This document shows, in pieces, positions 27,682 to 64,000 of a stretch of DNA of 64,000 bases (the first letter of the stretch is position 1; every line of letters begins with the position of its first letter). Below the pieces are notes generated by a model. The model worked only from the letters and a program-made list of their open reading frames with translations. It searched no databases and had not been told where the DNA came from. Source of the DNA: an uncultured virus (IMG/VR IMGVR_UViG_3300025133_000039) (taxonomy: Duplodnaviria > Heunggongvirae > Uroviricota > Caudoviricetes); the IMG/VR virus record IMGVR_UViG_3300025133_000039; one strand, 5' to 3'. Position numbers and translations under genes: made by a program.

Positions 27682-27683
27682 TT

Positions 27684-28255: not shown

Positions 28256-29304
28256 TATAGAACTGCAGCAGAGAGAAGTTCTTGGTATTCGCTCCTCATC
28301 TTATCTAGCTGAGCTTTCGTGCATGCCTTAGCCTTTTTGAGGAATGGAACCACTGGTCGCTTCGAAAGGTCTTCCCACTTGATTTTCGAAATTCCAGGAA
28401 ACTGATCGAAAGCACTAAGTCTTGTGTCGATACCAATGCCCACGCACTTAGTTCCTGGAATTCCATAAGAGCAAACTGCTCCATGGAGTCGAGCCGAAAC
28501 AACACCCTCGCAAGTGCCGTAATAGCGAAGAAGGCTGTCTGCACAGTTGGTATAGAAGACTGGGGTAACCTTCATGCCTGCTCGGAAAGCTTCAAACTCT
28601 CGCCTGCCGTGGCAGACGATAACTGGATCGTATCCAGCCTTTAAAAACTCATTCCGCAATTTTACAAAGGTGTCGAAGATGTGCTTCATCTTCTTGTCAA
28701 CGTCATTGCTGTCTACAAACTTGTCGGGGAACATGCCGGGGCTAGGAGGGACAAGAGCAACTCTCTTAGGAACTCTGTCCGGTACAACATTCCTACGACT
28801 CGCAGCGAACACTGCAGTGCAGGGCTGGAGCTTTGCATCTGGGCGAACCCTCTTTACAAGTTCGTAGGCGTGATGGTCTCTAGCTGTGATCAAAGAAGCG
28901 TTCTTGAATCTCTCTTTGAGAATCTCCACAGTCTTCTCAGACCCTTCACAGTAGTCTGCGAATTCAGTCGGACTCATGTCTGGGTTCGGGAAGCCCCCTC
29001 CCCCAGCAAGGTGCAGCGTGGTAATTCCTGTTGGATTTATGTACTCTTCCCAAAGCTCCTTGTCGTAGAAAAAGCACCAGTCGTCGTAATTGTTGTACTG
29101 GGGCATTCCGGCATAAACAATTACGCTAGCTTTCTTTACTTCGCTCATGCTGGCTTTGATGTCATTGGGTCCGAATTTAGAGATAAGGTCCCATTGGGTG
29201 GGCCCAAAGATACCTTCCCAAATGTCTTGTAAACCCCAAAAAATGAATCCGTCACCGGGGTTCCCCTTGTTCGGAGACTTGCGTGTAATTACTGGAACTC
29301 TCAT
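28255..29304 (-). CDS. polysaccharide pyruvyl transferase-like protein
   Basis: Motifs GNPGD, ITARD and VSARLHGAV. Confidence 0.7.
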   Translation of the reverse strand: MRVPVITRKSPNKGNPGDGFIFWGLQDIWEGIFGPTQWDLISKFGPNDIKASMSEVKKASVIVYAGMPQYNNYDDWCFFYDKELWEEYINPTGITTLHLAGGGGFPNPDMSPTEFADYCEGSEKTVEILKERFKNASLITARDHHAYELVKRVRPDAKLQPCTAVFAASRRNVVPDRVPKRVALVPPSPGMFPDKFVDSNDVDKKMKHIFDTFVKLRNEFLKAGYDPVIVCHGRREFEAFRAGMKVTPVFYTNCADSLLRYYGTCEGVVSARLHGAVCSYGIPGTKCVGIGIDTRLSAFDQFPGISKIKWEDLSKRPVVPFLKKAKACTKAQLDKMRSEYQELLSAAVL

Positions 29305-47529: not shown

Positions 47530-49114
47530 AAGTCACAGTCACATTGCTGTAGGGTCGTCGGAAGTAGAGTGTCTGGTAGTCAGTATCTACGAAGTAGGTA
47601 TCCGGTGCCGGATCGTACTTAGTATAGCTGCCCGGAAGTGTCAAAGCTAGAAGCCCGTCCTTGTCGAAGAACATGTCTTCTGCTCCAGGTAGCGGTCCAG
47701 GGATATCCTTCTTAGAGGTGTTGGACTCAACATACACTGCGGTATGCGAGATAAACACATCTGTGAGTCCCTGCAGCTCTACTTCGCAGTAGAAGTTCCA
47801 CTGCCCAAGCTCGTCGAAGGTATTCGTGAACTTAAAGTCTGTCCAGCTTTCTTCTGGTCGCCTTGCAGTATTATCTCCGAAGAAGTCGAAGCTGCCACCA
47901 ACCCAAAGCCCCAAGTCATTTAGATACTCTGTATTACCAGAGGGGTTAATGCGTCGAATACGTACCTTCTTGATTGGCGCTCTCAAAATGCGGAACCAAG
48001 TCCACATCGGTAGCTCTTCACCGAACCTTGCACGATGCCTAAGGGGAATGACCTGTACGTAGTGCTCAAAGGTTGACTCCTCCGGAGGAACCTCGAACTG
48101 AGTAAGGCCTATGTCGTGAACATGGATACCTCCAGCATTGTCCAGGACCCAGAGGCTCCCGTCATACGGACTGATATCGAAAGAGATTGGCTGATAAGGG
48201 GTCTCGGTAGTATCAAGCATCTGCTGCCAGGATAGCTCGTCTTCGAAATCCTGGAGCGCTAACTCGATGGTGGGTCTCCGGTAGGACTTGCCCTGGACCA
48301 CGAATCTTTGCGCGGTCTGCAGATAGTTGGTACCACCGTAGTCTACGAGCTTGTAAAGGGCGGGACCCTCTCTCTCTGGGGTGACTGCAGCCCTGAAAGG
48401 GTCTTTCCGGTCGAGGCCCATTAGCCTCGACCCTAGATAGACTTCTACAGTTCCATTGAAGCCAACGAAAACTGGCTGTGCAGTAAGCGCTGAGAAGATA
48501 TCGTTAGTTTTGAAAACCCCATCATCTGAAATGCTAACAATCTCGTCAATCCATAGACCGTTAAGATCTTCTCCTTGGAGATAGACGTAAGCGATACCAT
48601 GGAATCCAGGGATTTCGTTTTGAAGATCATAGAGGGTACTACCTTGGACGCTAATCGTTAGGTGGTCCGGCTCTTCAATAGAAGCAGGCGTCCCAGGCGC
48701 AGCGCTTGTCCACAGAAGCCAGCTAGTTACATTGTGCGCGCCGTCTTCAGTCAGAGTATTTGGAAGCGCCGTAAAGAAGTTCTCAAAGAACTCTGCACGA
48801 ACCAAAGTAATTGTAGAGCTGTCAATATCTCCCGTAACTACATCCGGGTATACAAAACCACTACTTCCATCAGAGTCCTCTTCGAAGACAACGTAGTCCT
48901 CTTCAAGCAGGGGTACCTGGAACAGTTGACCCTGCCCAAGGTCTTGACCCAGGACATCGTCAACTGCCAGAAGCTTAATGTCTTCGACTAGCGCCTGCTC
49001 GTAGTAGTTTGCCCATACAGAAAGCATCCTCTGGCCGACGGACGAAGGGTCTTGCCTAAGTCGAGTCCAGAAGGGGAAATTGTTGGCTAGTCTCTGGGTT
49101 AGCCATCCTTTCAT
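47522..49114 (-). CDS. putative baseplate protein (530 aa)
   Basis: ATGA-coupled directly downstream of baseplate J. Confidence 0.5.
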   Translation of the reverse strand: MKGWLTQRLANNFPFWTRLRQDPSSVGQRMLSVWANYYEQALVEDIKLLAVDDVLGQDLGQGQLFQVPLLEEDYVVFEEDSDGSSGFVYPDVVTGDIDSSTITLVRAEFFENFFTALPNTLTEDGAHNVTSWLLWTSAAPGTPASIEEPDHLTISVQGSTLYDLQNEIPGFHGIAYVYLQGEDLNGLWIDEIVSISDDGVFKTNDIFSALTAQPVFVGFNGTVEVYLGSRLMGLDRKDPFRAAVTPEREGPALYKLVDYGGTNYLQTAQRFVVQGKSYRRPTIELALQDFEDELSWQQMLDTTETPYQPISFDISPYDGSLWVLDNAGGIHVHDIGLTQFEVPPEESTFEHYVQVIPLRHRARFGEELPMWTWFRILRAPIKKVRIRRINPSGNTEYLNDLGLWVGGSFDFFGDNTARRPEESWTDFKFTNTFDELGQWNFYCEVELQGLTDVFISHTAVYVESNTSKKDIPGPLPGAEDMFFDKDGLLALTLPGSYTKYDPAPDTYFVDTDYQTLYFRRPYSNVTVTYA

Positions 49115-50355
49115 GTCACCGATACCTTAAACTGAAGGGAGAGCGAGCCTAGTGTGGCGAACTCATCTTCTGAGAGGGAGTAAGTGTCCGTATCAAGCGT
49201 AACTCTGTCAGAGAGAGTTAGGGAGGTTCCATACCCTCTGCGAACGAAGACTTTATTGAACAAGCTGTCACGCCCTTGTGCGGTTGTGACAGCAAAGAGA
49301 TCTCTGTTCTCTCGCAAGAGGAAGTCTCGCAAGTCCTTAAGATTGATCACGGTCTCAGAAACCTGGGTGCTGAAGTAGCGACGAAAGCTTCTGCGGATAC
49401 CTCGCTCAAGGATAGTCTTCTGCTCCTCACTAAGAGCTTCTCTTGTAAGTAGCTGCATGTCGAAGTCTAGAGTTACAACCACCCCTGGAATCGCTACGGC
49501 TTTCAAACCCGGAGCTGCCATACCTAGTAGATTCTCCTGAACCTGGCTAACCATGCGGCTCGTAGAGAAGCCTTCAGCTCCGAATACAATTACTCCGCTA
49601 GTGCCGATACCAAGGTATCCAGGAATTACTCGTACGTCTAGAACTCCCGGAACAACCAGGCCATCAAGCTTAAGCTTTGCCGCATTAGAAGTTCTAATAG
49701 AGGGGAAGTGCTGGCTTAGTCGGAACCTGAACTGATCGTCAGTCTCCTTGTCTCTAGCATTGATAATCGAGAATACATTCGTACACTTCAGTGTCTGGTT
49801 GGCGGCGTCCGTGTAACCAGTGAAGTTGTGAGTCTCAAGAACCGCCGCGCCTACGTTCTGAGAACTACCAGCAGCTCGGGCTCTTGCGCTAATGAAAGCA
49901 AAGGTCTCACCTGCTAGGAGCGTTGTATCTTCAAGTACAACATACTCAACTGCAGAAACTCCTGCATCGTTTGGCGTAGACGAGATGGTACTCCCTGCTG
50001 TAAGCAGGATATCCGCGCCACCATTAATTGAACCAAAGGTGCCGCCACCTTCTACAAAGAAGGTAAGGCTGCTTTCAAAACGATTAACTTCGGCAAAAGT
50101 TGCCTGTAGTCGAGACAAGCCTTTTCGCTTGTTTCCTACGTTATCAAGGTCTCTAGCTTTCGCGGTGGTTAGCTGGTTGCCAAGAAATGCGGTGCGAGTA
50201 GAGTTTCTGTCATCGATAATCTGTCGAGACAAAACATCAACGAGAGAGCGAGTCGCAGTGTCTGCGCCAAGATTGGTCAACCCCACTCGCGAACCAAGAC
50301 GAGCCTGGAAGTCAGCTAGAGTCTCCGTAAAATTCTTTAGTACTGGAAGTGCCAT
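49111..50355 (-). CDS. baseplate J-like wedge protein
   Basis: Motifs TAKARDLDNVG...LSR, AGSSQNV, ETDDQFRFR and VPGV.DV. Confidence 0.85.
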   Translation of the reverse strand: MALPVLKNFTETLADFQARLGSRVGLTNLGADTATRSLVDVLSRQIIDDRNSTRTAFLGNQLTTAKARDLDNVGNKRKGLSRLQATFAEVNRFESSLTFFVEGGGTFGSINGGADILLTAGSTISSTPNDAGVSAVEYVVLEDTTLLAGETFAFISARARAAGSSQNVGAAVLETHNFTGYTDAANQTLKCTNVFSIINARDKETDDQFRFRLSQHFPSIRTSNAAKLKLDGLVVPGVLDVRVIPGYLGIGTSGVIVFGAEGFSTSRMVSQVQENLLGMAAPGLKAVAIPGVVVTLDFDMQLLTREALSEEQKTILERGIRRSFRRYFSTQVSETVINLKDLRDFLLRENRDLFAVTTAQGRDSLFNKVFVRRGYGTSLTLSDRVTLDTDTYSLSEDEFATLGSLSLQFKVSVT

Positions 50356-50362
50356 GTGCCCT

Positions 50363-50791
50363 CTAGATGTTGCGTGGAATCAACCGGTTATTTCTTAGGT
50401 CGTATGTAAACTGAATCAAGATGGGCTCCTCTGCAGTTGTTCGGACTACAATTAAGAGGATAACCTCGTGCTCTGAAAGTGGAAAGACCTGAACGTCCAG
50501 GTCTGCTGCTCGAACCAGCCCACCTCTTAGAAGCTCATCTGCAACTCTGTTCTTAAGCGCCTCGCCTGTCTCTCTCGTATTAGGCTTGCCAATGAAGTCA
50601 GCCATGTTTGCACCAAGTTCAGGCTGTAAAGCCCAGTCACCTGACGAACTCATAATACGCTTTAGAATAGACTGAATGAAAGCTCTGTGTTCAAAGCTGT
50701 CTGTAACTTCTAGGTCTCCGTTAGGGGCGACTCGAAAGTCGCCGTCCGTAGAGAAGAATAAGTCTCTAAGTGTTGAGTAATCAAAAGCCAT
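50363..50791 (-). CDS. gp25/GPW-like baseplate wedge subunit
   Basis: GDLEV...QSILKRIMS..GDWALQPELGANMADFIG; immediately upstream of baseplate J. Confidence 0.75.
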   Translation of the reverse strand: MAFDYSTLRDLFFSTDGDFRVAPNGDLEVTDSFEHRAFIQSILKRIMSSSGDWALQPELGANMADFIGKPNTRETGEALKNRVADELLRGGLVRAADLDVQVFPLSEHEVILLIVVRTTAEEPILIQFTYDLRNNRLIPRNI

Positions 50792-50792
50792 C

Positions 50793-51137
50793 TTAAAATG
50801 CCATCGCCTTCAGCAGGTTGCCAATGTTTTCAAGCAAATTGAGAATAGGCTCTAGGGGAATTTTTGGAATCTGAGTCGGAGGGGAAGTCGGACCACCAAT
50901 TGCTGACATAGGGTACGGGGTATCTTGGACCATGGCCCCAAATGTCGGAGCAATAGAGCCAAAAGCGATCTTTGACGGCAGACCTCCCTGGAGAGTAATG
51001 CCATCCTCGCTAACAGATACAAACGTCTTGTCGCTTCCACCAATACGAATCTCGTCTTCAAAGACTGAGATGTTCGCTTTGACATCAGGATGATAGAAGA
51101 GCTTAAAGATCTTTGCTGGTCTTTGACTATCGGTCAT
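50793..51137 (-). CDS. hypothetical baseplate/spike-associated protein
   Basis: Lies between the hub-like and gp25-like genes. Confidence 0.45.
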   Translation of the reverse strand: MTDSQRPAKIFKLFYHPDVKANISVFEDEIRIGGSDKTFVSVSEDGITLQGGLPSKIAFGSIAPTFGAMVQDTPYPMSAIGGPTSPPTQIPKIPLEPILNLLENIGNLLKAMAF

Positions 51138-51652
51138 TACTGCTTAGGTCCAATCTTTTCAAAACTCTCACTGAGCGCTTTAATTTCCTTCAGGATGTTC
51201 GCACTACTAATCCCGGAAATGGGTCCAACGGGATTGAATACCTTAGTGTGCGAAGCTGAGTGTGCTTGCCGCTGCTCAAATACGGGCTCAAAGCGCACGG
51301 AACCTCTTTGCATTTCTGATGGAGTACTACCCTTGTATTGAATCTTGCAGCGCTTTCCAATAAGCGCTGCAGGGTTTCCGTAGTTTGTATACAGCTCATG
51401 ATCTGTATATCCAAATCGAACACGGATTCGAGCATTGCCATACTGCTTAGGTAGCTCGACCTCTGCCCAAATGTGACCAACCTGCTCTACGGCGTCCGCT
51501 TCGAGATCTGAATCAGGAGGCCCGAGGACTCCCACAACCTTGCAGCGACCGACTTCACGAAGATGATCCTGAACAGGATAGCCCTGATCAAAACTAGCCT
51601 TGGTCGCACGACGACCGTGAGCACTTCTTCTGTCTGCGGGAGTCATAGTCAT
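51137..51652 (-). CDS. hypothetical baseplate-associated protein
   Basis: Coupled ORF downstream of the giant hub-like gene. Confidence 0.45.
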   Translation of the reverse strand: MTMTPADRRSAHGRRATKASFDQGYPVQDHLREVGRCKVVGVLGPPDSDLEADAVEQVGHIWAEVELPKQYGNARIRVRFGYTDHELYTNYGNPAALIGKRCKIQYKGSTPSEMQRGSVRFEPVFEQRQAHSASHTKVFNPVGPISGISSANILKEIKALSESFEKIGPKQ

Positions 51653-51653: not shown

Positions 51654-54600
51654 TTACGAACCTGTCATGTTTGAGTGTTCAGCATTGCCAATTCGGCGCC
51701 AACCAGCCATTCCGTAACGCTTCCATTCTGAGATAAGATCACGCGTTCCACCGATTGTATCATCAACAGCATTCACTACGTTACCCTGAATGTTCTTCCA
51801 CATCATCATCGGGTCCTTGTAAGAAAGGCCAGCCACGATAGGAATGCCATTCTTCTGCAGCGGAATAACGCTCACAGCCTCTTCTTTAGAAACCTGGGCA
51901 AAGAGGATCGGTGCAGCGATGAACCAAGCCAAGCCTGGGTTATCGAAACTATCCCTTATCCAGTTTGCGGAGTCAAGGACTGCGGTTGCACCAAGGGCGC
52001 CCGCAGCTGCATTACCCTTAGAGCTGCTAAACCTGCTAGCTCCACCGAGCATACCTCTCCAGAGGCTTTGGCCAGAAGCATTACTCCAGCCCCATTTTAG
52101 AGCCTTGCCGCTCAGCCCGCCCACAGCTCTAAAAGCTCCGTAACCAAGAAAGGCTGTACCGACTGTAGCCGCAGTAGCTAGCCCACCAACAACCATGGTC
52201 TCGCTCGGCCTCTTAGCTAGCTCATCTTCTGGAAGGGTATCCATGATCTGCTGAATAAAATCAGGAGGAACGATCTCGTTCAACTTCTCTTCAAGATGCT
52301 CTCTGTAGCGAGGCGATGGCTTCTCTAGACCATCGATTGCCTGGAGCACTCTCTCTGAGAAGCTTTCTTCGCTAAACCCGAGCCCAGTCTTACCATCCTG
52401 AAAATCCATCACGGCCATGATGTAGAGCTTCATTGCTTCAATGACTGGCCAGGTGGAAATCTCGTTGCCGAACACAATGGCGTTCGGCTTAATTTCGGTT
52501 AGGAAGCCAGTCTCATGAGACATCATATGAGTCACGCGCTCTACCTCAACTGGGCCAATCATATCGTGGTAGTTATCCATTAGGAAGCAAATGTCCCACG
52601 GGCGAATACGCGGATTACCAAGAACGAGAATCTCGCCCCTGTACATCTGGCGCAAGCCATACATTAGGGAAGCTTGCCCATATCTAAGAGCCATGTGATA
52701 GCCCTTGAGGTTCGGATAGTACACAGGAACCATTCGCACCATTGAATCAGGCATTAGTGAGGACGCCTTCATGGTTACGGACTTCGTAGGCGAATTCTTA
52801 GAGTCTGGGTCTCCATCACGAAATTGGACGCTTACAGCGTTAGCCACATTGTGCTCGCTGCCCATCAGCCCATTGTGAACAATATCAGTGTCCGAGCTAA
52901 GTAGGTGGTACCTGCGGAACGGAACAAACCTCAACTCAAGACCCTTCAGGTACTCCCTTAAAGTCTTGTTAGTCATTCGAGTTACAAGAGATAGCTGTAC
53001 AGACTTCTCCAGGTCTTCGAAGGAAAGGCTCTGGGCCGGCATGCCAAGCTCATCACCTTCTGGCTGCAGTTCTCCAGCTGTATCGGAAAGAATCCTGTCA
53101 TAAGCTGCCTGACCGTAAAGCGTAATGAACTTTCTCTCATCAATTTCGCCACTGTCGAGGAACTCTCTCAGAGAGTTGATTCGGTTGATGAATCCATTCG
53201 AAGCAGGCTTCGACCAGAAGCGCTGCGAAGGTACACCAAAGAACATCGTATAACGGAACTTGCGGCCATAAGGGCGCGCTCCGTACACCCACCCTGGGTG
53301 ACGCAAAGACATCTCGTGGAACATGTCCCAAATCGTGGCGTTGATCGGAGTGTACTCACACTCTCCGGGGGTTACTCGCTTGTCTAGATGCCACTTCTCA
53401 GGGTTCGCCCACTTCTGATACCACTTGCTTACCTCAGAAACTGCGTTGCCTTTCCCGAAGACTGTCGAAGCAATACCGTGTAAGGAGAATCGCCCAACAA
53501 CATCGAAGAACCCAAGACGCTTATAGTCCATATAGTCTTTCGGAGAAGGCGGGAATAGGTTGTCATCCTGAGGGGAGAGCATCAGGGAGACCTGGGTTCT
53601 GGTGTACCACTCCTTTACATCTTTGATTGCCTTATTCTTCAGTGGCGAGAGCATCGAGGCCCCCACATTAAGAGTCGCTCCAGCGGCGAAGATAACTGCT
53701 CCGGAGCGAACAACTCGACCAAACTGAGTCCCAACTGCCCCAGCTGCCTGCCACGCCATACGGAAGCCACCAGACTGCCAAAAGCCAGCCCCTAGTGGGG
53801 CAAGAGCCTTGTACCCGATAGCAGCTCTCACAGCGGCTGAACGGTTTACACCAACCAGCAGGTTAGCCATAGCCTTTGTGGCTACTGCTTGGGCAGCTGG
53901 TGAGGCACCAGGGGTAGTTAGAATCTGTGCAGCCCTCAAAACAATTTTTCTATTTGCTCTGGTTAGTCCAAGGAAAGCAGCGCGAGTGGTAATACCATTC
54001 CTTAAGAGGAACGAACGAACACTTCCAGTCTTTGCTCCAGCAGCTAGGCCTGAAGCAGTAGCTGTTCGAATGGAGTTCGCAACTCCAGCCTCGGTAACGC
54101 CAGCCTTAAGGGCTGCCGACCTCGCTGCGCCGACGCCAGCTCGTCCACCACCACCTAAGATAAACCTTCCGGCTCTTCCTAGAAGCGCCCCGCCACCAAA
54201 GCGGGCTGCGATTACAGAGAGACCTGTACCAATTGCAAGAGTTGCTACTGGGTGATGGCTAATCCATCGACCCAGTCTCTGGGTAAAGCCGAACTGTCCG
54301 TTCCATGTACCCCTTGTGTAATCCACAAAGTCGAGACGAGAATCAGTTGATTCTCCATACTGATACAGCTGACCAAACTCCCAGCGCCCAAAGTGTTTAA
54401 GCTCAGGCTCAAGCATCAAGGAGCCTAGCAGTTTATGGGTACTCTGATATACATCAACCTCTGCACCCTCAGACTCAAACTCTCTACGCCCTTTTAGAAT
54501 CTGTACCAGTTCGGTACCGAAAGACTGCACTACGATTTCGGCTAGGTCTCCAGCCTGAGTCCAAACAACATCAACTACTCGTCCAGAGATAAGCACCTCT

Positions 54601-57600
54601 AGAGCATTCGGATCATCCGAATAGCCAGCACGCAACTGCACGTTCAGTCCAGGTCGTAGAACTACTGCTCCAAAAGGCTGGTCATTAGCCGAAGTCAACT
54701 GGATTGGAGAATCCCCGCGAACTCTCGCTGAAGGCTTCTCTGCCTGAATCTTGTCAGTCTTTTCTCGGTCAAAGTAGTCTAGGTCGGTAACTACATTTCG
54801 CTTTGTGCCATCCAGCGTACCTGCAATGTTCTGAAGAACAATAATCGCAGTGTCTGCAGGGTGGTTTCTATCCAAGCTAACGTTGAACTCTTTTACTCCG
54901 TTGTAAGAATAGAAATCATCGAAGTTCAGGAACCTACTCTCATTCTCATCCTCTTCAACAAACATTAGTTTAAAGGTGGGGAAAGCACGACGCATGGTTA
55001 GCTTCTCGGAAACGATATCCTTCGAAGAATCAATAGCAAGCTGCTTGAGCGAAGCAGGATCGAAAGCCATTCGGTGAGCGCCTATATGAGACTGTAGCTG
55101 GGTTCCGCGGATTCCACTCGCCACGGCATCTGCAGTGTCTTGGGTGATGTGCTCGCCCAGGTGTCCCTGCTTAGAACCGAAGAAAATCTCAGTATCATTC
55201 ACCTTGTTGACAAGCTCGACGTACTTGCTCGCATCTGCTCTCGGAACATTAGTGTAAAGGGGATTTCCGTCACCAAGTGATAGGAGCGGAGCCAAAGGCT
55301 TGATGTCCTGCTGGAGTGACTTGAGGATATCGACGCGCTTCTTCAAAGCCTTCTTTTTTGCAGAGATAGCCCTCTGTCCCTGGCGACCCTCAGCTGTTCT
55401 GCCAGCGGGAGATGCGCGACCACCACCGGCGGCAGCCCTTTGCTGCTGCTGGGTAAGTTCGTCAATCTTCTTTTCGATCTGAACGATAGCGTTGTCGCCG
55501 CTCTTCAGCCACTCCTGATAGTCTTCTTCTGCGCCAGCATAGAAAGCCTCCTGCATCGGCCCAGCGTCTGCTGAGAACGAGCCGTCCGCATTCATAAACT
55601 GTACTTCGTCACAGCCTTCAGGGTGATGAGTTAGACGATGAAGTAATGCTGACCGCTCAGTGCCCTCATCCATAATCGTAAGCTGCTCGATGTCCTCTGG
55701 ATCTAATCCACCATCAGTCTGCATTTCCTTAAGGTGGCCGTAGGCACCTCTCATTGCGGGTTCAATGCGATCGGCAACCTGGAGGGCTAGAGCCCCCTGA
55801 AGTGCTCCAGGGCCATCTTCGTAAACACTCCACATGTAGAAATCTGGAGAAGTCTGATGTAACTGATCTGGGTAATACGGGTGAGCTGGAAGCTCAAGAT
55901 CCGGATAGCAACCTGCACCCGTCCACTCGTCAGACTCAATGCCTGCTAGTAGCAATTCGTCTAATCCAAAGACCGCCAGGATGGAGCGGTTGGAAAGAAG
56001 CTCATCTGCAAGCTTACTAAGAGCTGCGTGTAGGTAGCGAAGCTTATTCTCTTCAGTTGACTTGCTAACTGGAAGGCCGACAATGACATTGCCATCGCCG
56101 CGCGAAGTTGGCGGCGATGTAATACCGTCGAACATAGAGTCTTCTCGGTCTTGAATCTCCTTGCTTTCAGCTTCGCGTCGCGCAGCAATATCTGGCGCCC
56201 TGCGCTGGATATAGGCCTCGTAAGGTCTAGCCTCTCGGTAGCTTGTGAGCCCGCCCTCAGTAACCTGCTCAATGGGCCCAGCGCCAATATCGTACCAAGC
56301 AACACTCGCCCTGATGCTCTCTGTAACTTCCTCGTAGGAGCGTCTCAGCTTTAGGCCATTCTGGTTGTCTCCAGCGAAAGCCAATCCAGAAAGAAATGGG
56401 ATTTCGTTAAAGATAAACTCTGGCAGGCCTAACTCTAGGTCAAAGAAGCGCATGTATCGACGCACAACGTTGTGCTCAACGTTGACGGCTTCATTCTCTC
56501 GCATAGCCTTGAGGTGTTTCCACTCCTGCCCTTCAGGAACGAACGGCATAGAGATAAGGTCACCGACACCTCTAAGCGCAGTAAACGTAAATCCGCTAAG
56601 TAAATCTTCCAAGGCGTCCTGGCCGGGCGCAACGATCGAGGGGAACTTAGTTCTAAGCTCTCCTCTATCTACGGCAGGCAGAGACCCAACTTCGACAGGA
56701 ATGTTCCAGAAGTCCAAGATTTTCTGGAACTCACTAGTAAGATCTGAATCAGAGAAGTTGCTAAGGCTAGGAACCTCTGACACGAAGCCGGTGTCCTTCC
56801 CAGACATTCTTCCTAGGAAGAGAACCTGAGAGTAGAAGAAGAAGAAACTTCTCCACATGGAGGGCTCGGTATCTGGTAGGTCGTAGAGCTGTTCTGAAAT
56901 AACGCCTTCGTCAAGAGCCTCCTCTAGGTCGGTCTCAGACATGACAAGACGAGCAACCTGCTGGAGCTTATTCAGCGCCTGGTAGTAGTGAGAAAGCTCT
57001 TCCCAGTTAACTGTTCTCAGTTTAGGGTTGTACTCATAAAACCTGGTAGCGTCAACGACTTGTCGCGTAATGCTGCCATCTCGTCCAGCTTCGTATCCAT
57101 TCTCATCGAAATTGGAGCGCTGAATCTGAATCTCTTCTTCGTAAACATGTAAGTCTGGGTTTTGGCTAAAAGACTCCGCAATTGAATTGAGAGAAGTATC
57201 AATACCGTTTCTACCAAGAGTTTGCGCAGGCCTATTGTCGCCTACCTGAGCCGTAGTGCCTCTCTGAGTCGCTGCAGCACTACCACCAGAAGCATTAATT
57301 AAATCAATAAAGAAATTCTGATTTGCATCGCTTCTTCCTAGGCTGTGCTTCAGTTCAGTTCTCTGTCCATGCTTCGAGCCTGTATTCTCTGCAAGCGAAG
57401 TATACTGAAGTACTTCTGTGTTCCTCCGCGAGCTTGACTCAGCTAGAGTCGCAAACTTGGGATTTTGAGAAAGCGTATCTACTGTTGAGGCATCGAGCTT
57501 GTTAGCAAGAGCCAGCAGCGCAGCCGTCTCGCCCTCATCCGAGAGGGCGAGACTATCTAGAGCGTGCAGGATTTCCTTGCGACGAACATTGAGATCGTCG

Positions 57601-60248
57601 GGGATGTTGTTCACTGGCGTAATTGGGTCTTCGCCATAGGGGTTCGTTTCAGTAACTTCTACAATTACTCCAGACAGCCCTGGGTTTCCGTCAATCGTGC
57701 GGGTTTCGGAAGAGCTAATACTTGTACGCTTCTTTACCTGCAGCTCTCCATTCTCTAGCTGAATTGCATCAGACTCAGAGAACGTTCCGAACAAACGAGT
57801 AATAAAGTGATCTGTTGACGCCGTCCAGCAGTCCGGAACAGGTCGGAATCTGCGCGAGTTGTACTGAAGCTCAGACCTCATGCCCTCAAGCCACTGTGCG
57901 GAATCAGACAAGCCAGCAAGCTTGTCATCATTCGCCAAGGAGACAAACTCAAACTGGAAGATAGGCTCAATAGACCCTAGGTGCTGGTGAGTTGGGAACT
58001 CGGAGCCAAGAATTGGGATTGAAGCAATAACATGAGATAGCCCACCGCTAACACCTGTAAGAACCATTCCCTCTCTATAGAAGAGAGACATATCTTCCGG
58101 TGCTAGCGGGGAGCGCCAATCAATGTCGTTGTTTGCAGAATAAACTGTCTGCATGTTCAGCCTGCGCCAAACACCTAGGACGTCTGCATCGTTCTCGTAG
58201 TATCTCCAACCACCATTGTAAAGCTCTCCAACGATATCCTGGAGGCTCGTCTTTTCTTCTGGAGTTAATCCAAACTCGTCAATCTCTGCCTTCTTTGCGG
58301 CTTCGCCTTCAGCGTAAGCTTGCTGCTCTGGGGAGAGCGCAGAGCGAGCATCAGCGACACTATGCCCAAAGCGCTCTTCATAAGCGTCGGCCAGCGAAGG
58401 ACCAGAAGTAGTTACCTCTGGTGCAGGCTCTGCGTCTTTCTCAACCTCAACAACGGGCTCAGGCCTGTCTGCGACGGGCCCCGTACCAAAGCCATCCTTA
58501 TAGTATCTGAGAGGATCGACCTTAATTCCACGGACCGAGCCACGGCTCTTAGAGATACTCTCCCTGATGCTGAAGTGAAGGTGAACTGGAGTCGCACCCA
58601 GCGAACCAGTGAAACCTGCAGCAGCCTGTGTCGAGCGAGTAGAAATGTTTCCAGTATCACCCGTAATGCCAATGATCTGACCTTGTGTTACCCGGTCCCC
58701 ACCCTTAACAGTAATTCCGTTAGCATCGAGGTGAGCGTAACCACTAATGATATTGTAAGTGCCCTCATCGTCTTGGTGCTCAATGTATAGACGTACACCT
58801 CCACCCTGTCGGTGGTTATTTGGGTTCTCCCAGATGCTTGCAGTCTGAACAACAAAGCCGTCAGCAACCGCACGTACAGGCGTACCTACAGGGCAACGGA
58901 TATCCAACCCCTTATGAAACCTCTTCTGGTCCTTCGCCTCTTCGTTAGTAAGCCCTTCCCTCTGGGCGGAGCCATGTGCTTCCATGCCTCGGTAAAGGCC
59001 CGGCGCAGCCTGTGCTTCCCCAACGTGGTTCTTCTCATCCTGAAGTAGATATTCGTCAGCAATTGGCCAGATGAATCCACTTGATGGGCGAGGACTGGCC
59101 TCGCCACCTGGACGCTCAGGACCAAGGGCTCGATAGATATCGAGAGCTTCTTTCGCAGCGCGCTCCTGCTGGCGCTGCTGCTTCAACTGAATCTTCTGGG
59201 AAAGCTCAACACTCTTGTAGCTGTGGTAAACGAAACTTAGGTTGCGAGACTTCTCATGCATCTTGCGAACCCAAGTGTTGCCCTCACCGCTTGGATACAT
59301 TCCTAGCTCGTGCAGGCCATACACCTTCCGGCGAGTGCCGACGTGCTCCTCTGATGTGCTTAGTAGCTCGCCAATTCCCCACGGCTCGAATCTCTCTGGG
59401 TACTCACCGCCCTCGGTGATATCAGAGTAAACATCAATGCCAAAGTTGTTGAATAGAGCTTTCTGCTGCAGTGTATTAATGTAGCGAACATAGATATTCG
59501 AATCGCTCGGCCTCGTTACAAAACGAGCCGGAGCCATGTTTGAAGGCAGGGGTAGCAGATCGAATACTGAACCTCGGTGGGTAGCCTCAAGATCGTGTAA
59601 GGTGGGTCCCGAGCTACGACGCTCAGGCTCTGCAGCCATTACGTCATACTCCTGTACCGCCTGCCTATCAGAAGCTACAACCTCAGGAAGCAAAGACTGG
59701 AGAGGTCTTAGACCCACGCCGAAAGTAGGAATAGTGAATCGCGCAACAGTCGGGTTCCCATCAAAGAACTCGCCAGTGTCGCCAGAGAGTTCGACAGGCC
59801 TCGTAACCCAATCATCCCTGAATAGGTAGTTGATAGAGTAGGGGAAGTAGTTGAACCAGCGAAGATCAAGCTGCACTACATACGTATTCGGAGCCTTCGG
59901 CATAGGCTCTACGTGAAGCGAACTCATAGTAAATGCCATCTGCTGGAACTGCGGCCAGTGAGGTACCATTGCATGACGCAAGTACTCGCTATCCACATAG
60001 CAGAACGGAGAGTGTCTGAACTGAACGATGAGCCTGTGTAGGTCTAGAATTAGCTCAGGAGTAAAGGTCATCTTTACAGAAACCTGAGCCATTCCGTGCC
60101 CACTAGGAATCTTCGTGGACGCCTTTGAACGAAGTGTCTTCCACTTCCACTCCAAATCCTCCTTGCGCACAGAGATGTGCTGCGGAGGAATATAGAGGTC
60201 AATGTCGTTGATGACGAAGTTCCCCTGGCGGCCAGTCAGGAGTGGCAT
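51654..60248 (-). CDS. giant (2864 aa) baseplate-hub-like virion protein with an M23 peptidase domain
   Basis: M23 motifs HKGLDI, YAHL and HLHF (about 58500-58930). The C-terminal third has LRPG..VQLRAGYS, QSFGTEL and MYRGEILVLGNPRIRPWD, resembling phage hub proteins. Confidence 0.7.
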   Translation of the reverse strand: MPLLTGRQGNFVINDIDLYIPPQHISVRKEDLEWKWKTLRSKASTKIPSGHGMAQVSVKMTFTPELILDLHRLIVQFRHSPFCYVDSEYLRHAMVPHWPQFQQMAFTMSSLHVEPMPKAPNTYVVQLDLRWFNYFPYSINYLFRDDWVTRPVELSGDTGEFFDGNPTVARFTIPTFGVGLRPLQSLLPEVVASDRQAVQEYDVMAAEPERRSSGPTLHDLEATHRGSVFDLLPLPSNMAPARFVTRPSDSNIYVRYINTLQQKALFNNFGIDVYSDITEGGEYPERFEPWGIGELLSTSEEHVGTRRKVYGLHELGMYPSGEGNTWVRKMHEKSRNLSFVYHSYKSVELSQKIQLKQQRQQERAAKEALDIYRALGPERPGGEASPRPSSGFIWPIADEYLLQDEKNHVGEAQAAPGLYRGMEAHGSAQREGLTNEEAKDQKRFHKGLDIRCPVGTPVRAVADGFVVQTASIWENPNNHRQGGGVRLYIEHQDDEGTYNIISGYAHLDANGITVKGGDRVTQGQIIGITGDTGNISTRSTQAAAGFTGSLGATPVHLHFSIRESISKSRGSVRGIKVDPLRYYKDGFGTGPVADRPEPVVEVEKDAEPAPEVTTSGPSLADAYEERFGHSVADARSALSPEQQAYAEGEAAKKAEIDEFGLTPEEKTSLQDIVGELYNGGWRYYENDADVLGVWRRLNMQTVYSANNDIDWRSPLAPEDMSLFYREGMVLTGVSGGLSHVIASIPILGSEFPTHQHLGSIEPIFQFEFVSLANDDKLAGLSDSAQWLEGMRSELQYNSRRFRPVPDCWTASTDHFITRLFGTFSESDAIQLENGELQVKKRTSISSSETRTIDGNPGLSGVIVEVTETNPYGEDPITPVNNIPDDLNVRRKEILHALDSLALSDEGETAALLALANKLDASTVDTLSQNPKFATLAESSSRRNTEVLQYTSLAENTGSKHGQRTELKHSLGRSDANQNFFIDLINASGGSAAATQRGTTAQVGDNRPAQTLGRNGIDTSLNSIAESFSQNPDLHVYEEEIQIQRSNFDENGYEAGRDGSITRQVVDATRFYEYNPKLRTVNWEELSHYYQALNKLQQVARLVMSETDLEEALDEGVISEQLYDLPDTEPSMWRSFFFFYSQVLFLGRMSGKDTGFVSEVPSLSNFSDSDLTSEFQKILDFWNIPVEVGSLPAVDRGELRTKFPSIVAPGQDALEDLLSGFTFTALRGVGDLISMPFVPEGQEWKHLKAMRENEAVNVEHNVVRRYMRFFDLELGLPEFIFNEIPFLSGLAFAGDNQNGLKLRRSYEEVTESIRASVAWYDIGAGPIEQVTEGGLTSYREARPYEAYIQRRAPDIAARREAESKEIQDREDSMFDGITSPPTSRGDGNVIVGLPVSKSTEENKLRYLHAALSKLADELLSNRSILAVFGLDELLLAGIESDEWTGAGCYPDLELPAHPYYPDQLHQTSPDFYMWSVYEDGPGALQGALALQVADRIEPAMRGAYGHLKEMQTDGGLDPEDIEQLTIMDEGTERSALLHRLTHHPEGCDEVQFMNADGSFSADAGPMQEAFYAGAEEDYQEWLKSGDNAIVQIEKKIDELTQQQQRAAAGGGRASPAGRTAEGRQGQRAISAKKKALKKRVDILKSLQQDIKPLAPLLSLGDGNPLYTNVPRADASKYVELVNKVNDTEIFFGSKQGHLGEHITQDTADAVASGIRGTQLQSHIGAHRMAFDPASLKQLAIDSSKDIVSEKLTMRRAFPTFKLMFVEEDENESRFLNFDDFYSYNGVKEFNVSLDRNHPADTAIIVLQNIAGTLDGTKRNVVTDLDYFDREKTDKIQAEKPSARVRGDSPIQLTSANDQPFGAVVLRPGLNVQLRAGYSDDPNALEVLISGRVVDVVWTQAGDLAEIVVQSFGTELVQILKGRREFESEGAEVDVYQSTHKLLGSLMLEPELKHFGRWEFGQLYQYGESTDSRLDFVDYTRGTWNGQFGFTQRLGRWISHHPVATLAIGTGLSVIAARFGGGALLGRAGRFILGGGGRAGVGAARSAALKAGVTEAGVANSIRTATASGLAAGAKTGSVRSFLLRNGITTRAAFLGLTRANRKIVLRAAQILTTPGASPAAQAVATKAMANLLVGVNRSAAVRAAIGYKALAPLGAGFWQSGGFRMAWQAAGAVGTQFGRVVRSGAVIFAAGATLNVGASMLSPLKNKAIKDVKEWYTRTQVSLMLSPQDDNLFPPSPKDYMDYKRLGFFDVVGRFSLHGIASTVFGKGNAVSEVSKWYQKWANPEKWHLDKRVTPGECEYTPINATIWDMFHEMSLRHPGWVYGARPYGRKFRYTMFFGVPSQRFWSKPASNGFINRINSLREFLDSGEIDERKFITLYGQAAYDRILSDTAGELQPEGDELGMPAQSLSFEDLEKSVQLSLVTRMTNKTLREYLKGLELRFVPFRRYHLLSSDTDIVHNGLMGSEHNVANAVSVQFRDGDPDSKNSPTKSVTMKASSLMPDSMVRMVPVYYPNLKGYHMALRYGQASLMYGLRQMYRGEILVLGNPRIRPWDICFLMDNYHDMIGPVEVERVTHMMSHETGFLTEIKPNAIVFGNEISTWPVIEAMKLYIMAVMDFQDGKTGLGFSEESFSERVLQAIDGLEKPSPRYREHLEEKLNEIVPPDFIQQIMDTLPEDELAKRPSETMVVGGLATAATVGTAFLGYGAFRAVGGLSGKALKWGWSNASGQSLWRGMLGGASRFSSSKGNAAAGALGATAVLDSANWIRDSFDNPGLAWFIAAPILFAQVSKEEAVSVIPLQKNGIPIVAGLSYKDPMMMWKNIQGNVVNAVDDTIGGTRDLISEWKRYGMAGWRRIGNAEHSNMTGS

Positions 60249-63200
60249 TTAATCTCCTAGGATTCGGTCGATGTAAGAGCCGGTAATCGGCCTACGTGAG
60301 TCATTGATTCTAACAGAGGACTGACCTCCGATTCCATTCATGAAGTTCGTCAGCCTTGAGATGGCTTCCGGCCCACCTACACTTCCTCGGACCTGATAAG
60401 CATTAGAACGAGCGAAGTATGTCTCTGGCGTATTGATAGGAGTATCGGGCGAACCCATCATTCCCATATCGGCTGAAGAGCGTCCAGCACCAGTGCTAGA
60501 TGAGAGTAGTGTACCCTGCGCAATCTCAGATTGCACCCTGTGGGACATATTCTCACCAGGCATAGACAAAGGAGTAGGAGCGTATCCCTCGAATCCCGTC
60601 ATTGCGCCAACCGCTAGAGAACCCGCTAAGCCTAGGGCGATGGGCGCAATTAGTCGCTTATCCAATCGAGAAGCAGCACCACTCACCTGGTCAAAAATAG
60701 TCGTAGCCTTAGCAACGCGGCGCTCGATGTCACTCATTTGGCCAAGAGCGATAGCGGCCTGTTCTAGACCACGGTTTTGAATTGCTGCTTCATACGACGA
60801 AACTGCATCAGCATTCTGTAAGAACCGAGCTAGCTGCTTATCTGTTTCGGGAACTCCGCTTGGCTGGCGATTTGCGATGCTCTGTAAGAAGTCCACGATA
60901 GAGTCTAGGTCAAAGCTAATTCCCTTTACCCCAGCGCTCAGATTCGCAATCATCTCAGCACTAGCGCCGCCGGTCATCCCAGACATTCCTTGGATAGTTA
61001 CTGCCCCTGTTGCAAGCTCCTGACCCCTGAATGTCATATTTTTCAGGACAGACTTCATCGCGTCAGAGCCTTCGCCACCCATCATTTGATGAATAGCCCA
61101 ACGCAGCGGCCTTCCCATATCTACAGGTGAGTCAAGCTTCTTAGCCTTCAGCAAGGAGTCTTCTTGAAGAACCTTCAATAGGTCCCAAGAAGCTCCAGCG
61201 ATCTCACGAGTCTCATCCGTTCCGTAGCGAACGATTCCACTACGCAAATTTCCGAAAGCTACGTCAATCGCGCCTACATCCTTAGCCATGATCTCCTGAG
61301 CAATTTTGCCTTCTGTGAACTTGTGCAAGTTCTCAGCGATAGCACCCGGAGCTACTGTCGACAATACCTTTCCAGTTTCTGCAATTCCAGCCTTGGCCTG
61401 CTGCCTAAATACAGAAGTGCGAATAGCAGACACGAAATCTCTTTGCATCGACGACTTCCTGTTCATGCCGCCCAATACCTTGCCAGCAGATTTGTCTGAG
61501 AGGAAGGTGAAGTGATAAGCATCAGAGTCGAAGTCACCAAACATCTTGTTAGCCCAGTCAACATTGAACGTCTGAGTTGAACCCATCCCCTTAATATTGA
61601 CATTAGCTGTCATCTTCGGAATATAGACTTCACCACCACCATGGCCCGCCCAGCTATCAACAGACTGAGACATAGCGTCAAAGAATCTCTTCTTCTGCTT
61701 CCTTCCTAGGCCAGCTACATCATGGAAGCTACTTACCTTTAGGCTTCTTGCAAGTCGACTACCAGTCTTGGTCCCAGTAAAGGCTTGGAATGCTCTGTCC
61801 GCCCCACCGGTAAACTCTCGTGTATCGCGAAACACTTGTGTTGGAGTAACGTGTGAGGGTGCAAGCGTGGGATATCGTCCACCAATGGCAACTAGGCCTT
61901 GGTGTGCGCCGCGCTCCTGGCCTGTGAAGAACATGGAGAAGCGCCTACTCATATCAGCTTTTGCAGCTTCGCGGGACATACCCTCTGCCGTTGCTCCAGA
62001 CATAAAAGTCTTCATAGCATCAGTGAATGCAGCAGTATTCATAAATACTGCCTGACCGCTTGCAGCTCTATAAGACCTAATCGCTCTCGCCTTCGAGGCG
62101 GCGTTGCTACCGCCTCGAATATCATTAAGCATATCAAGACTAGAACCCTCAGGGAAGACAGAGCCAAGCATAGACCCTCTGGTGACGTTTGTCATCGCGC
62201 CGGCAAAGAGGTCCGTCATGTTTCCGCGAAAGGCTCCTAGGCGGTCCTGGGCGACCCTGAATGCCTTTGAGCCAGCACCCTGCGCAGTGGAAATTCGGAG
62301 TAGGTCATCATGAAGGGTTTTTACATTGCGAACGTACTGAGGAAAAATCTCAGTGGATGAACCATCTGCAGCACGAATAGAAGTCCCTTTCATGTTCTCT
62401 AGAATGTCTCCACCTGGTAGGAATACAGAGGAGGATCCACCAAAAGCTTTCTCTGCGGCGGCTTGCACCTGCCTGTTCCCAGTGAAGTCGAGCGCAAGAC
62501 CATCAGGGCTTTGCCTAAGAAGTGCTTCTACGGCTGCTTCTCCACCACCGCCAGCGGTGACAGACTTAGTGAACTTCTCCCAGTTCATCAGCGTTGGTCC
62601 CTCAACGCCTAGCTTGTGTGCGGCTCTCACGTCACCAAGACTAGTGTGACCTATCATCGTTGACATAGTCTTAGATAGCCCGCTCGCGACAGACATGTCA
62701 CGACCAATGTTCTCCTTGCGCGCCAGGAACGAAGTCATTACTTCGTTTACTTCATCTGCGTTCATACCCATAGTGTTTCGTAGGCGCTCTGCAAGGAACT
62801 TGAATGAGCGAGGCTCTATAGAACCTTTCGCCGCACCGTATGTTAGGTACGGTGTCGGCGCCGCTGTAAGGGAGCCCATCCCTATAACGGCCTTAGACTC
62901 AATGCCTTCCATAACGCCTGCTACCGCACCCTCCCCAAATGAACCTCGGATTGAGGCTTCGAGCCCAGAAGCGAATCCCTTTCCTGCGAATCTATTTCCT
63001 ACAGCGTGAGCACCGCCTAAGACGGAGCCAGCCATTTGTGGAGAAATGTCATTCATGTATACCGCTGCAGACAATACTTCGGTAGCAAAACTAGTCGCAC
63101 GCTGGAGCTTGAGGGCTTGTGTCAGAGGGGTCTTGGCTCCTCTAAGAGTCGCGGCATCTAAGCCTGCGCCTTTTGCGAACCAGGCATGTAGATCGTCAGC

Positions 63201-64000
63201 CCCACCGTTGGACCCCCAGGGCCCCAGGCCTAGCAGATCTAATCCACCAACCATCTGGTTAACAAGATTGTCAACAGACTTACGTAACATCGCGCCACTG
63301 GTGAAAAGTGTGCGATTCATATCCATCCCGGCTTCTCCAAATAGGGTCGCCGCAGTCATCCCACTACTACCTACAGGGATGCCTCTGAGCATCTTTCTAA
63401 TGGCGCTTTCGTCTGCTTCAAGAGTTGTTCCCTTGAATAGGTCACCGAAGAGCTTAGTTCTCCCAGTGGAGAACTCAGCCTTTCCATGGATATGAATCTT
63501 GTGCTGCGGGTTCCTTCCGCCAGTCACACTTCCAGAAGCCCTGAGGTGCATACCGGTCATATCGGGATGAGCCTTGATGAAAGCTTCCCTACCTTGAGGA
63601 CCCATTCCGAGCGCACCCTTATGACTTAGAATTTCAGCTCTAGTCAAATAGACACTCTCGCCCTTGCTTGTAGCATGGGTAATCCTGTTGAGTAGCTTAC
63701 GAGAAGAGAGATTGTGTTCTTTTGGGTTTAACACAGTCTTAACATATGGTGAACTGATGTTAGTCCTACCAGGCATTATTGCTTCGCCTTCGCCAATTCC
63801 GAAACGAGTACTAGTCTTCTTCTCAGACATGTCAAAGAAGATAGCCTTGTTCATAGAACCCGAGACCATATCGTTGGCTACAGACATGTTTCCACCGTAG
63901 ACCCTACGATCAGTTCGGCGCCCGACAGTAACGTTGGCTTGATTGTGGTGTGGGAAGATAAAGGTATCCCTTCCAAGCTGCTGGCCACGCCGAGCAGTTG
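60249..64000 (-). CDS. very large virion protein, 5'-truncated by the window edge, with two-barrel RNA-polymerase-like motifs
   Basis: The frame stays open from ATG 63887 to the window end. Contains TKLFGDLFKGT, GGRYPTL and MFGDFDSDAY. Confidence 0.6.
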   Translation of the reverse strand, partial: TARRGQQLGRDTFIFPHHNQANVTVGRRTDRRVYGGNMSVANDMVSGSMNKAIFFDMSEKKTSTRFGIGEGEAIMPGRTNISSPYVKTVLNPKEHNLSSRKLLNRITHATSKGESVYLTRAEILSHKGALGMGPQGREAFIKAHPDMTGMHLRASGSVTGGRNPQHKIHIHGKAEFSTGRTKLFGDLFKGTTLEADESAIRKMLRGIPVGSSGMTAATLFGEAGMDMNRTLFTSGAMLRKSVDNLVNQMVGGLDLLGLGPWGSNGGADDLHAWFAKGAGLDAATLRGAKTPLTQALKLQRATSFATEVLSAAVYMNDISPQMAGSVLGGAHAVGNRFAGKGFASGLEASIRGSFGEGAVAGVMEGIESKAVIGMGSLTAAPTPYLTYGAAKGSIEPRSFKFLAERLRNTMGMNADEVNEVMTSFLARKENIGRDMSVASGLSKTMSTMIGHTSLGDVRAAHKLGVEGPTLMNWEKFTKSVTAGGGGEAAVEALLRQSPDGLALDFTGNRQVQAAAEKAFGGSSSVFLPGGDILENMKGTSIRAADGSSTEIFPQYVRNVKTLHDDLLRISTAQGAGSKAFRVAQDRLGAFRGNMTDLFAGAMTNVTRGSMLGSVFPEGSSLDMLNDIRGGSNAASKARAIRSYRAASGQAVFMNTAAFTDAMKTFMSGATAEGMSREAAKADMSRRFSMFFTGQERGAHQGLVAIGGRYPTLAPSHVTPTQVFRDTREFTGGADRAFQAFTGTKTGSRLARSLKVSSFHDVAGLGRKQKKRFFDAMSQSVDSWAGHGGGEVYIPKMTANVNIKGMGSTQTFNVDWANKMFGDFDSDAYHFTFLSDKSAGKVLGGMNRKSSMQRDFVSAIRTSVFRQQAKAGIAETGKVLSTVAPGAIAENLHKFTEGKIAQEIMAKDVGAIDVAFGNLRSGIVRYGTDETREIAGASWDLLKVLQEDSLLKAKKLDSPVDMGRPLRWAIHQMMGGEGSDAMKSVLKNMTFRGQELATGAVTIQGMSGMTGGASAEMIANLSAGVKGISFDLDSIVDFLQSIANRQPSGVPETDKQLARFLQNADAVSSYEAAIQNRGLEQAAIALGQMSDIERRVAKATTIFDQVSGAASRLDKRLIAPIALGLAGSLAVGAMTGFEGYAPTPLSMPGENMSHRVQSEIAQGTLLSSSTGAGRSSADMGMMGSPDTPINTPETYFARSNAYQVRGSVGGPEAISRLTNFMNGIGGQSSVRINDSRRPITGSYIDRILGD

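Follow-up and report, generated by a model that had tools for sequence, protein, structure and literature searches.

The gp66 polymerase of phi14:2, a crAss-like phage, is head cargo of the podovirus type. It is an active virion RNA polymerase (RNAP) whose metal-binding loop reads DFDID (bioRxiv 10.1101/2020.03.07.982082). In Thermus siphophage P23-45, gp96, which is fused to the tape measure, uses AT-rich promoters to transcribe pre-early genes, among them that of the gp64 polymerase (bioRxiv 10.1101/2022.12.01.518664). For two-barrel RNAPs eight invariant residues have been defined, including an aspartate in barrel B, and the counterpart of the RxP motif is Rpb1 R446/P448 (PMC2919709). Here, a 64,000-nucleotide stretch from an uncultured tailed virus (IMG/VR IMGVR_UViG_3300025133_000039; hereafter the window) was analysed, with a focus on the large minus-strand gene at its end, which lies in a contractile-tail operon and for which an earlier reading of the letters alone (the sequence-only reading) had proposed a single-chain two-barrel RNAP.

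The encoded protein almost certainly has a two-barrel polymerase fold, judging from its predicted model, and conserved motifs and model together make it very probably an active RNA polymerase. By gene context and composition it is quite likely to be virion-borne and ejected. The fuller reading, by which this single-chain enzyme is ejected together with a neighbouring gp145-like protein and transcribes a pre-early region at the genome end, is probable.

Gene and active-site conservation

The 5′ 483 codons of the gene lie outside the window and correspond to positions 8552-10000 of L001, an IMG/VR viral contig that is 99.94% identical in DNA over 10.6 kb and supplies the whole open reading frame (ORF) of 1732 aa that the sequence-only reading had wished to see recovered. 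Residue numbers below refer to this whole protein, of which aa 484-1732 are inside the window. The motifs first noticed were all found in a single minus-strand frame and in the N-to-C order given, with DxDxD and RxPxL each occurring once only within the window's 1249 aa; one coordinate needed mending, as the 61863-61877 quoted for IGGRYPTL covers its RYPTL part (full positions in Table 1). The description of a Gly/Ala-rich protein just upstream of the hub gene was borne out (Gly 12.2%, Ala 11.4% and no Cys in the 1249 aa; a 2864-aa hub directly downstream), and 'giant' was generous for 1732 aa.

A HMMER scan of 1.84 billion representatives returned 134 relatives (E <= 0.001), mostly 1650-1800 aa long and 23-33% identical to the query. 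The query and the 85 relatives of 1300-2100 aa were aligned (n=86), the other 49 (fragments or outliers) being excluded. Only five of the 1732 columns are invariant across the 86 sequences (G554, P1193, D1305, D1307 and D1309), and near-invariant residues include R1191 (85/86), K665 (84/86), K723 (83/86) and K672 (80/86, plus four with Arg). The K665-K672 spacing is seven in 85/86, and DxDxD, R/K-x-P and both basic residues are kept jointly in 84/86. This motif conservation is not chance, as the five invariant columns include all three aspartates and the RxP proline; the DxDxD and lysines of the sequence-only reading thus proved to be conserved among homologues rather than lost. The reference residues compared were Rpb2 K979/K987 for the barrel-B basic pair, and Rpb2 D837 and QDE-1 D709 for the barrel-B aspartate. 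Immediately ahead of G554, 34 of the 86 members have Glu, 17 Ser, 11 Gln and 2 Asp, and D539 (Asp in 65/86) sits 14 residues upstream of that position. After barrel A, E1385, G1392, E1429, K1434 and K1436 are conserved.

Two caveats that had been attached to the motifs dissolve in the family context. The first was a DFDSD loop in place of DFDGD: the fourth position is Gly in 68/86 members, DFDGD is found in 27/86 and DFDSD is rare (2/86), and a non-Gly fourth position is also found in active phi14:2 gp66. The second was a distance from RxP to DxDxD (114 aa in the window's protein) long enough to require insertions. Across the 86 members the median spacing is 124.5 aa (66-429 aa overall, 110-147 aa in 73/86), so the long gap is a family trait; most of it is accounted for by a helical insert in barrel A (aa 1208-1272), and in the model RxP is separated from the Asp loop by an insert of five helices and by a hairpin.

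Among 28 relatives scanned against Pfam, no polymerase family match was accepted; an RNA_pol_Rpb1_4 match in one relative (E 0.066) was dismissed, as it falls in the wrong region. PF05183, an RNA-dependent RNA polymerase (RdRP) profile, matched neither the protein nor the 28 relatives at E <= 0.1, and tblastn against annotated phages returned no match to the protein.

Predicted structure

An AlphaFold2 model of aa 470-1480 (50-sequence input; model residue numbers count from there) reached a predicted local distance difference test (pLDDT) of 87.2 and a predicted TM-score (pTM) of 0.87. Every listed row of a Foldseek search against PDB was a beta/Rpb2 chain (best E 1.7e-3), and ranks 1-20 of a VIA search of 48,161 chains were all two-barrel RNAP chains. 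Model 7-403 aligned to vaccinia Rpo132 677-1027 (Z 10.7, root mean square deviation (rmsd) 4.6, 268 aligned) and to other beta chains too, with K665/K672 falling within the beta-aligned region. Model 464-1011 aligned to Rpb1/beta′ (Z 7-8.4), and model 626-847, which holds RxP and DxDxD, to the designed double-psi beta-barrel (DPBB) 7dww (Z 5.7, rmsd 2.8, 83/86 residues); this barrel A region also aligns to CDC48/VAT-N barrels. Matches spanning the whole model were QDE-1 (Z 10.1, rmsd 4.3, 361 aligned over model 5-988), ZmRDR2 (Z 9.1), P74 gp62 (Z 9.1) and P23-45 gp96 (PDB 8h2m; Z 6.8, rmsd 4.5, 329 aligned), while phi14:2 gp66 (PDB 6vr4) stood at rank 32 (Z 5.7, 410 aligned). PolD DP2 was not among the matches listed in the VIA search, which excludes nothing.

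Each of these Z-scores is middling alone; the weight of the predicted model is in the order of beta-half, connector and beta′-half and in the conserved residues within those halves. The model is of alpha/beta type with RNAP barrels rather than all-helical, and the structure prediction and Foldseek comparison that the sequence-only reading had called for gave a pair of barrel regions that correspond to those of RNAP beta and beta′, which together with the conserved residues supports its single-chain two-barrel proposal. The helical connector between the barrels is possibly clamp-like: it matches the archaeal clamp 3qqc at Z 5.9, and unrelated four-helix bundles score alike. By position, the long post-barrel helices are candidates for the bridge helix and trigger loop. 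A separate model of aa 1-600 (pLDDT 75) predicts long helices and an alpha/beta domain (~aa 205-465); it matched only generic helical bundles (Z <= 7.3), the alpha/beta domain being barely probed.

Tail operon and gene slot

In L001 the order runs from sheath and tube through two tube paralogues and a pair of chaperone-like genes to a 1377-aa gene, the RNAP gene, the 2864-aa hub and baseplate genes, and these tail genes match the tail operons of the phages 0305phi8-36 (Bacillus) and ME3 (Acinetobacter). The RNAP gene occupies the slot of 0305phi8-36 gp146, between the gp145 homologue and the hub. For both gp145 and gp146 the annotation gives a virion protein identified by mass spectrometry, and gp146 was named tape measure mainly from its length (PMC2147016). 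Synteny was assessed in 15 IMG/VR loci (the window's own locus and near-duplicates included) that were fetched by a DNA pattern of the C-terminal tail carrying no active-site information: the hub is downstream in 15/15, a gp145-like gene is upstream in the 13/13 with DNA there, and DxDxD is found in the 14/14 that reach that region.

The gp145-like gene stands between the chaperones and the RNAP gene, which is thus one removed from the chaperones, and no tape-measure family matched the RNAP protein in Pfam/PHROG scans. That the RNAP protein itself is the tail-length ruler is a tentative proposal, somewhat more doubtful than not; the gp145-like protein, directly after the chaperones, may be an alternative candidate for setting tail length. 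Literature searches for measured tail lengths, against which a ruler could be checked, found none. In the hub, the M23 peptidase spans aa 443-563, and an extended hydrophobic stretch rich in Gly and Ala lies around aa 2010-2210; the hubs of relatives are 2800-3300 aa long.

Possible signs of ejection from the virion

Cysteine is absent from 86/86 family members. In two complete relatives, G002 and G005, merely 3/25 and 3/21 ORFs of >= 500 aa are Cys-free, the trio in both being the RNAP protein, the gp145-like protein and a 1050-1110-aa SNase-domain protein, and hubs carry 4-15 Cys. Cysteine suppression has been described in the virion RNAP and ejection proteins of N4/DEV and linked to periplasmic passage (PMC11445570); as the Cys-free trait extends to phages that infect Gram-positive hosts, passage through a periplasm would be only part of the explanation. 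A hydrophobic segment lies within the last 220 aa of 73/86 members. Gene position, zero cysteines and this C-terminal segment together suggest that the RNAP is injected into the host.

The third large Cys-free protein is encoded at the start of the structural module (G005 127605-130769, G002 155483-158821, G003 5437-8508, G004 30602-33742). It has an N-terminal LDIET-type motif (exonuclease-like, by eye), is hydrophobic in a middle segment and also bears an SNase domain (PF00565 in both G005 and G002), which makes it a candidate injected nuclease.

Second polymerase and hairpin motif in relatives

In four of the five near-complete relatives (G001 to G005), a second large ORF with RxP and GDDDGD lies away from the tail operon. 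Its product has 14-32 Cys and matches PF05183 weakly (E 0.0024, below cut-off). A profile of this second polymerase misses the family of the window's protein (best E 0.39), which lends no support to a recent duplication. A hairpin with a CTTCGG loop, followed by a T-tract and TTTTA(A/G)(T/C)GG, is present in four copies each in G002 and G005, where it clusters near a genome end and is confined to the surroundings of the second polymerase and to the same strand; 20 mononucleotide shuffles gave an expectation of 0.05-0.1 copies. In G001, three similar copies lie just upstream of the second polymerase. This hairpin/T-tract motif may be a terminator, a promoter or both. No promoter-like repeat was found in window 1-30000.

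Metagenome contig L047 (reverse) overlaps window 1-127 at 100% and extends 10 kb upstream of position 1; its ORFs, inspected by eye, are dUTPase-like, ribonucleotide-reductase-like (810 aa) and ThiF-like, with no polymerase motif.

Slot proteins of cultured phages

Foldseek searches of BFVD with the model gave six matches at E <= 0.001, two of which are from ME3 by organism and length: ME3_36 (1603 aa), which occupies the RNAP slot, and ME3_309 (798 aa). A third corresponds to half of WH1 gp095, judged from length alone. A0A7J4, a giant PLD-domain protein of Microcystis phage Ma-LMM01, is a weak BFVD match (E 3.4e-5, TM-score 0.14, rmsd 31).

ME3_36 carries REP, GDHDQD and KFFSVGSK, conserved in five relatives, with DG at the barrel-B Asp position, and WH1 gp095, Edson 0920 and KLEB27-3 gp034 carry RYPT and ADxDGD 38-40 aa apart; KLEB27-3 gp034 matches RNA_pol_Rpb1_2 at E 0.015. 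The slot proteins of these four phages are annotated only as hypothetical, structural or tape-measure. None has significant sequence or profile similarity to the RNAP family: ME3_36 is not significant by BLASTP, hidden Markov model (HMM) or hhalign (P = 1.1%), and KLEB27-3 gp034 reaches only E 0.005 among 26 test proteins. The link to the family is therefore by slot, motifs and Foldseek, not by sequence. Together with MTATph1 CDS0027, these proteins share with the window's the gp146 slot and the absence of cysteine.

0305phi8-36 gp146 and MTATph1 CDS0027 have a common exonuclease-type region, the N-terminal region of the Bacillus slot proteins resembles an RNase_T-type exonuclease protein, and family member P0132 has a 3′-5′ exonuclease domain (PF01612, E 4e-27). 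As polymerase motifs are found in some slot proteins and an exonuclease-type region in others, the slot appears to carry different enzymes by lineage. [quoted passage not shown]

Elsewhere in ME3, ME3_309 and ME3_307 are by their motifs probably an interrupted second single-chain RNAP, split by ME3_308, and the interruption is probably an intron. ME3_309 is unmatched in the five relatives, hence the second polymerases of ME3 and of the window's clade are not close.

Comparison with described polymerases

With P23-45 gp96 (PMC10770324) the window's protein shares a single chain, two barrels, DxDxD, a gene in the tail module and hydrophobic segments. The two systems are also alike in the loss of the RNAP from the slot in some relatives, and may be alike in a partner non-virion RNAP near a genome end, the candidate here being the second polymerase of the near-complete relatives. 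They differ in chain length (5002 aa versus 1732 aa), in the tail (non-contractile versus contractile), in the polymerase core, which in the window's protein is central and takes up ~60% of the chain, and in the clamp: gp96 is clampless, whereas the window's protein has a ~190-aa helical connector between the barrels. By sequence it is not an orthologue, as gp96 chains were not listed at E <= 10 in PDB sequences (phmmer or a 50-sequence profile).

The likeness to phi14:2 gp66 is in a single two-barrel chain, similar size, a non-Gly fourth position of the Asp loop and, probably, virion delivery; the window's protein differs in coming from a myovirus tail operon and has no sequence match to gp66. 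The QDE-1/RDR2/YonO-type enzymes (including 0305phi8-36 gp99) provide the best whole-span structural matches (QDE-1, ZmRDR2), yet they are non-virion proteins, and the window's protein lacks a PF05183 match and a conserved barrel-B Asp, with a family RxP-DxDxD spacing of 110-147 aa.

No description of an RNAP in the gp145-hub slot was found in the literature searched, which leaves out most subscription papers. The available portions of PMC10684548, PMC13434306 and PMC13282480 held nothing relevant by term. The available part of the PMC10770324 supplement has no entry for ME3, WH1 or Microcystis; its family alignments may hold relatives.

Other features of the window

A DnaE-type DNA polymerase at window 7119-13891 (plus strand) is divided among three ORFs (438, 531 and 437 aa), between which lie further ORFs and intein-like matches; this suggests introns or inteins. 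Window 16591-29304 carries auxiliary metabolic genes (PfkB kinase, cupin/mannose-6-phosphate isomerase-like, IMPDH, ClpP, glycosyltransferase 9, pyruvyl transferase and HAD phosphatase).

Table 1. Coordinates of the RNAP gene, its motifs and predicted domains, neighbouring genes and related loci (window positions unless another record is named)
Feature	Position	Strand	Basis
Two-barrel RNAP gene (predicted), 3′ 1249 codons (aa 484-1732)	60249..63998	-	Frame open from window end to stop at 60249
R486-x2-Q489 motif	63981..63992	-	84/86 each; start of region aligned to Rpb2 hybrid-binding area, putative role
Beta/Rpb2-like half with barrel B (predicted), aa 476-872	62832..63998	-	Model alignment to vaccinia Rpo132
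IGEGEAIMP with invariant G554, E553 before it	63771..63797	-	G 86/86
Motif TKLFGDLFKGTT	63458-63423	-	Frame translation
K665-x-F-x4-K672, candidate catalytic lysine pair, barrel B	63432..63455	-	K 84/86, F 84/86, K 80/86 (+4 R)
Helical connector between barrels (predicted), ~aa 905-1090	62178..62735	-	Model secondary structure; Rpb1/beta′ alignments start here
Barrel A (predicted DPBB with inserts), aa 1095-1316	61500..62165	-	Model alignment to isolated DPBBs
IGGRYPTL	61886-61863	-	Frame translation
R1191-Y-P1193 (RxP motif)	61869..61877	-	R 85/86, P 86/86
Helical insert in barrel A (predicted), aa 1208-1272	61632..61826	-	Helices at model 749-797
EVYIP	61631-61617	-	Frame translation
GDFDSD	61538-61521	-	Frame translation
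D1305-F-D1307-S-D1309 metal-binding loop	61521..61535	-	Three Asp 86/86
Long post-barrel helices (predicted), aa 1330-1436, bridge-helix/trigger-loop position	61140..61460	-	Within ranges aligned to QDE-1, gp96, gp66
Hydrophobic, transmembrane-like segment aa 1598-1619	60591..60656	-	Kyte-Doolittle 1.84
Conserved C-terminal tail INDxRRPITxxYxDR	60249..60308	-	Alignment; used to retrieve relatives independently of active site
2864-aa baseplate hub with M23 peptidase (0305phi8-36 gp147 / ME3_37 homologue)	51654..60248	-	phmmer E 1e-26 to 1e-29; PF01551
Contractile baseplate genes (171, 114, 142 aa; baseplate J 414 aa)	49111..51652	-	PF04865, phrog_6, phrog_120
Hairpin motif regions	G002 160300-161098 and 1-5250; G005 118860-125700; G001 7570-11800		Motif scan
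Slot proteins of ME3, WH1, KLEB27-3, Edson	L003 22328-27139; L005 17377-24924; L006 19289-26593; L007 14377-21924		RxP + DxDxD, no Cys
Exonuclease-type slot proteins gp146, MTATph1 CDS0027	L002 23930-31543; L004 23375-30731		
ME3_309 (ends at RNP), ME3_308 endonuclease-like, ME3_307 (DVDGD)	L010 32114-36849 = KU935715 222114-226849	-	Unannotated

Discussion

By the reading favoured here, the polymerase would be produced late, alongside the tail proteins, be incorporated into the virion and enter the host by ejection when infection begins. For catalysis, barrel B would supply K665/K672, and barrel A R1191 and the three Mg-binding aspartates. The enzyme would probably travel unfolded with its Cys-free gp145-like neighbour, cross the envelope and may stay tethered via its C-terminal hydrophobic segment. 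It would then transcribe a short pre-early segment at the end of the genome, in which the second, non-virion polymerase is encoded, as gp96 does for gp64; the basis for this last step is found in relatives only, in gene content and the local hairpin/T-tract/ATGG-type motif.

Several observations weigh against this reading. The protein and its profile have no polymerase sequence match in Pfam, PHROG or PDB, no Foldseek row in PDB is at E <= 0.001, and the best structural matches reach Z-scores of only 10-11 and TM-scores of 0.13-0.18. The barrel-B Asp has no conserved counterpart at the expected site (an equivalence drawn from motif order), the family's barrel-B lysines are 7 apart and not 8, and the window's protein deviates from its own family at L482, S1092, S1308 and Q1384. 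In the same slot, 0305phi8-36 gp146 and MTATph1 CDS0027 have no polymerase motif. The second polymerase was not seen in G003 (a linear record, one of the five near-complete relatives), the strict hairpin motif is absent from three of the five genomes (G001, G003 and G004), and neither was detected within the window or over the 10 kb that precede it.

Some of these points would fit an ejected two-barrel nucleotidyl transferase with another job, such as a primase, an RNA-templated or DNA polymerase, or a genome-pulling motor with a minor RNA product. The best single-chain structural match is indeed the RNA-silencing polymerase QDE-1, the barrel-B Asp is not conserved, and exonuclease regions are found in P0132 and, as an RNase_T-type-like N-terminal region, in the Bacillus slot proteins. 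The window's protein, however, has no exonuclease match, the RxP Arg and three Asp are retained as in RNA polymerases, DnaE and a primase-helicase are already encoded in the genome, and the two-polymerase layout with its local signal motif parallels P23-45; this alternative is accordingly considered unlikely.

An active polymerase that is unpackaged, works in the cytoplasm late in infection and is merely encoded in the tail operon is improbable. Gene position alone is no proof of packaging, but cysteine is lacking from every aligned member (versus 14-32 in the second polymerase), a C-terminal hydrophobic segment is present, and the gp146 slot protein was found in virions.

A further alternative, in which an inactive polymerase fold serves as the framework of a structural tape-measure or ejection protein, would agree with the label 'hypothetical tape measure' of the slot in 0305phi8-36, where, as in MTATph1, polymerase motifs are lacking, and with the four off-consensus positions of the window's copy. 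ESM Atlas matches, all below 0.9 and thus leads only, include tape-measure-like clusters at 0.87-0.88. This explanation is nonetheless quite improbable: among members only ~25% identical, invariance is confined to the catalytic residues, the pattern given by selection for catalysis. A conventional helical tape measure whose motif resemblances are accidental, for which the lack of any family or sequence match to polymerases could be cited, is refuted by residue conservation and by a confident alpha/beta model that matches RNAP barrels.

A broader and rather doubtful proposal is that 0305phi8-36/ME3-like myophages carry a Cys-free modular payload, in which a gp145-like ruler or channel is combined with a slot for swappable enzymes: a polymerase here and in ME3, a polymerase with an exonuclease in WH1/KLEB27-3, and an exonuclease alone in 0305phi8-36 and MTATph1. 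The RNAP would be threaded unfolded through the tube, refold and, anchored in the membrane, draw in the genome end by transcribing from the hairpin/T-tract signals; it would function without the barrel-B Asp that is otherwise universal. If so, ME3, listed in print as an RNA-polymerase-free jumbo phage, would have two.

Returning to the ejected transcribing enzyme, the protein probably represents a sequence-distinct family of virion RNA polymerases in contractile-tailed phages. Tail-delivered two-barrel polymerases have so far been characterised in one siphophage group (P23-45), and the present family would add at least 134 representatives (clustered at 50%) from contractile-tailed phages, invisible to Pfam and PHROGs. 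It would probe which of the 'eight invariant' active-site residues are truly needed, and would offer new rifampicin-independent single-chain polymerases with candidate promoter/terminator signals. The cultured phages make testable the tail delivery of a folded 1000-residue enzyme and the start of take-over without host RNAP. When infecting, this phage group may supply transcription machinery of its own, and so, probably, may some cultured relatives that by annotation are without such an enzyme.

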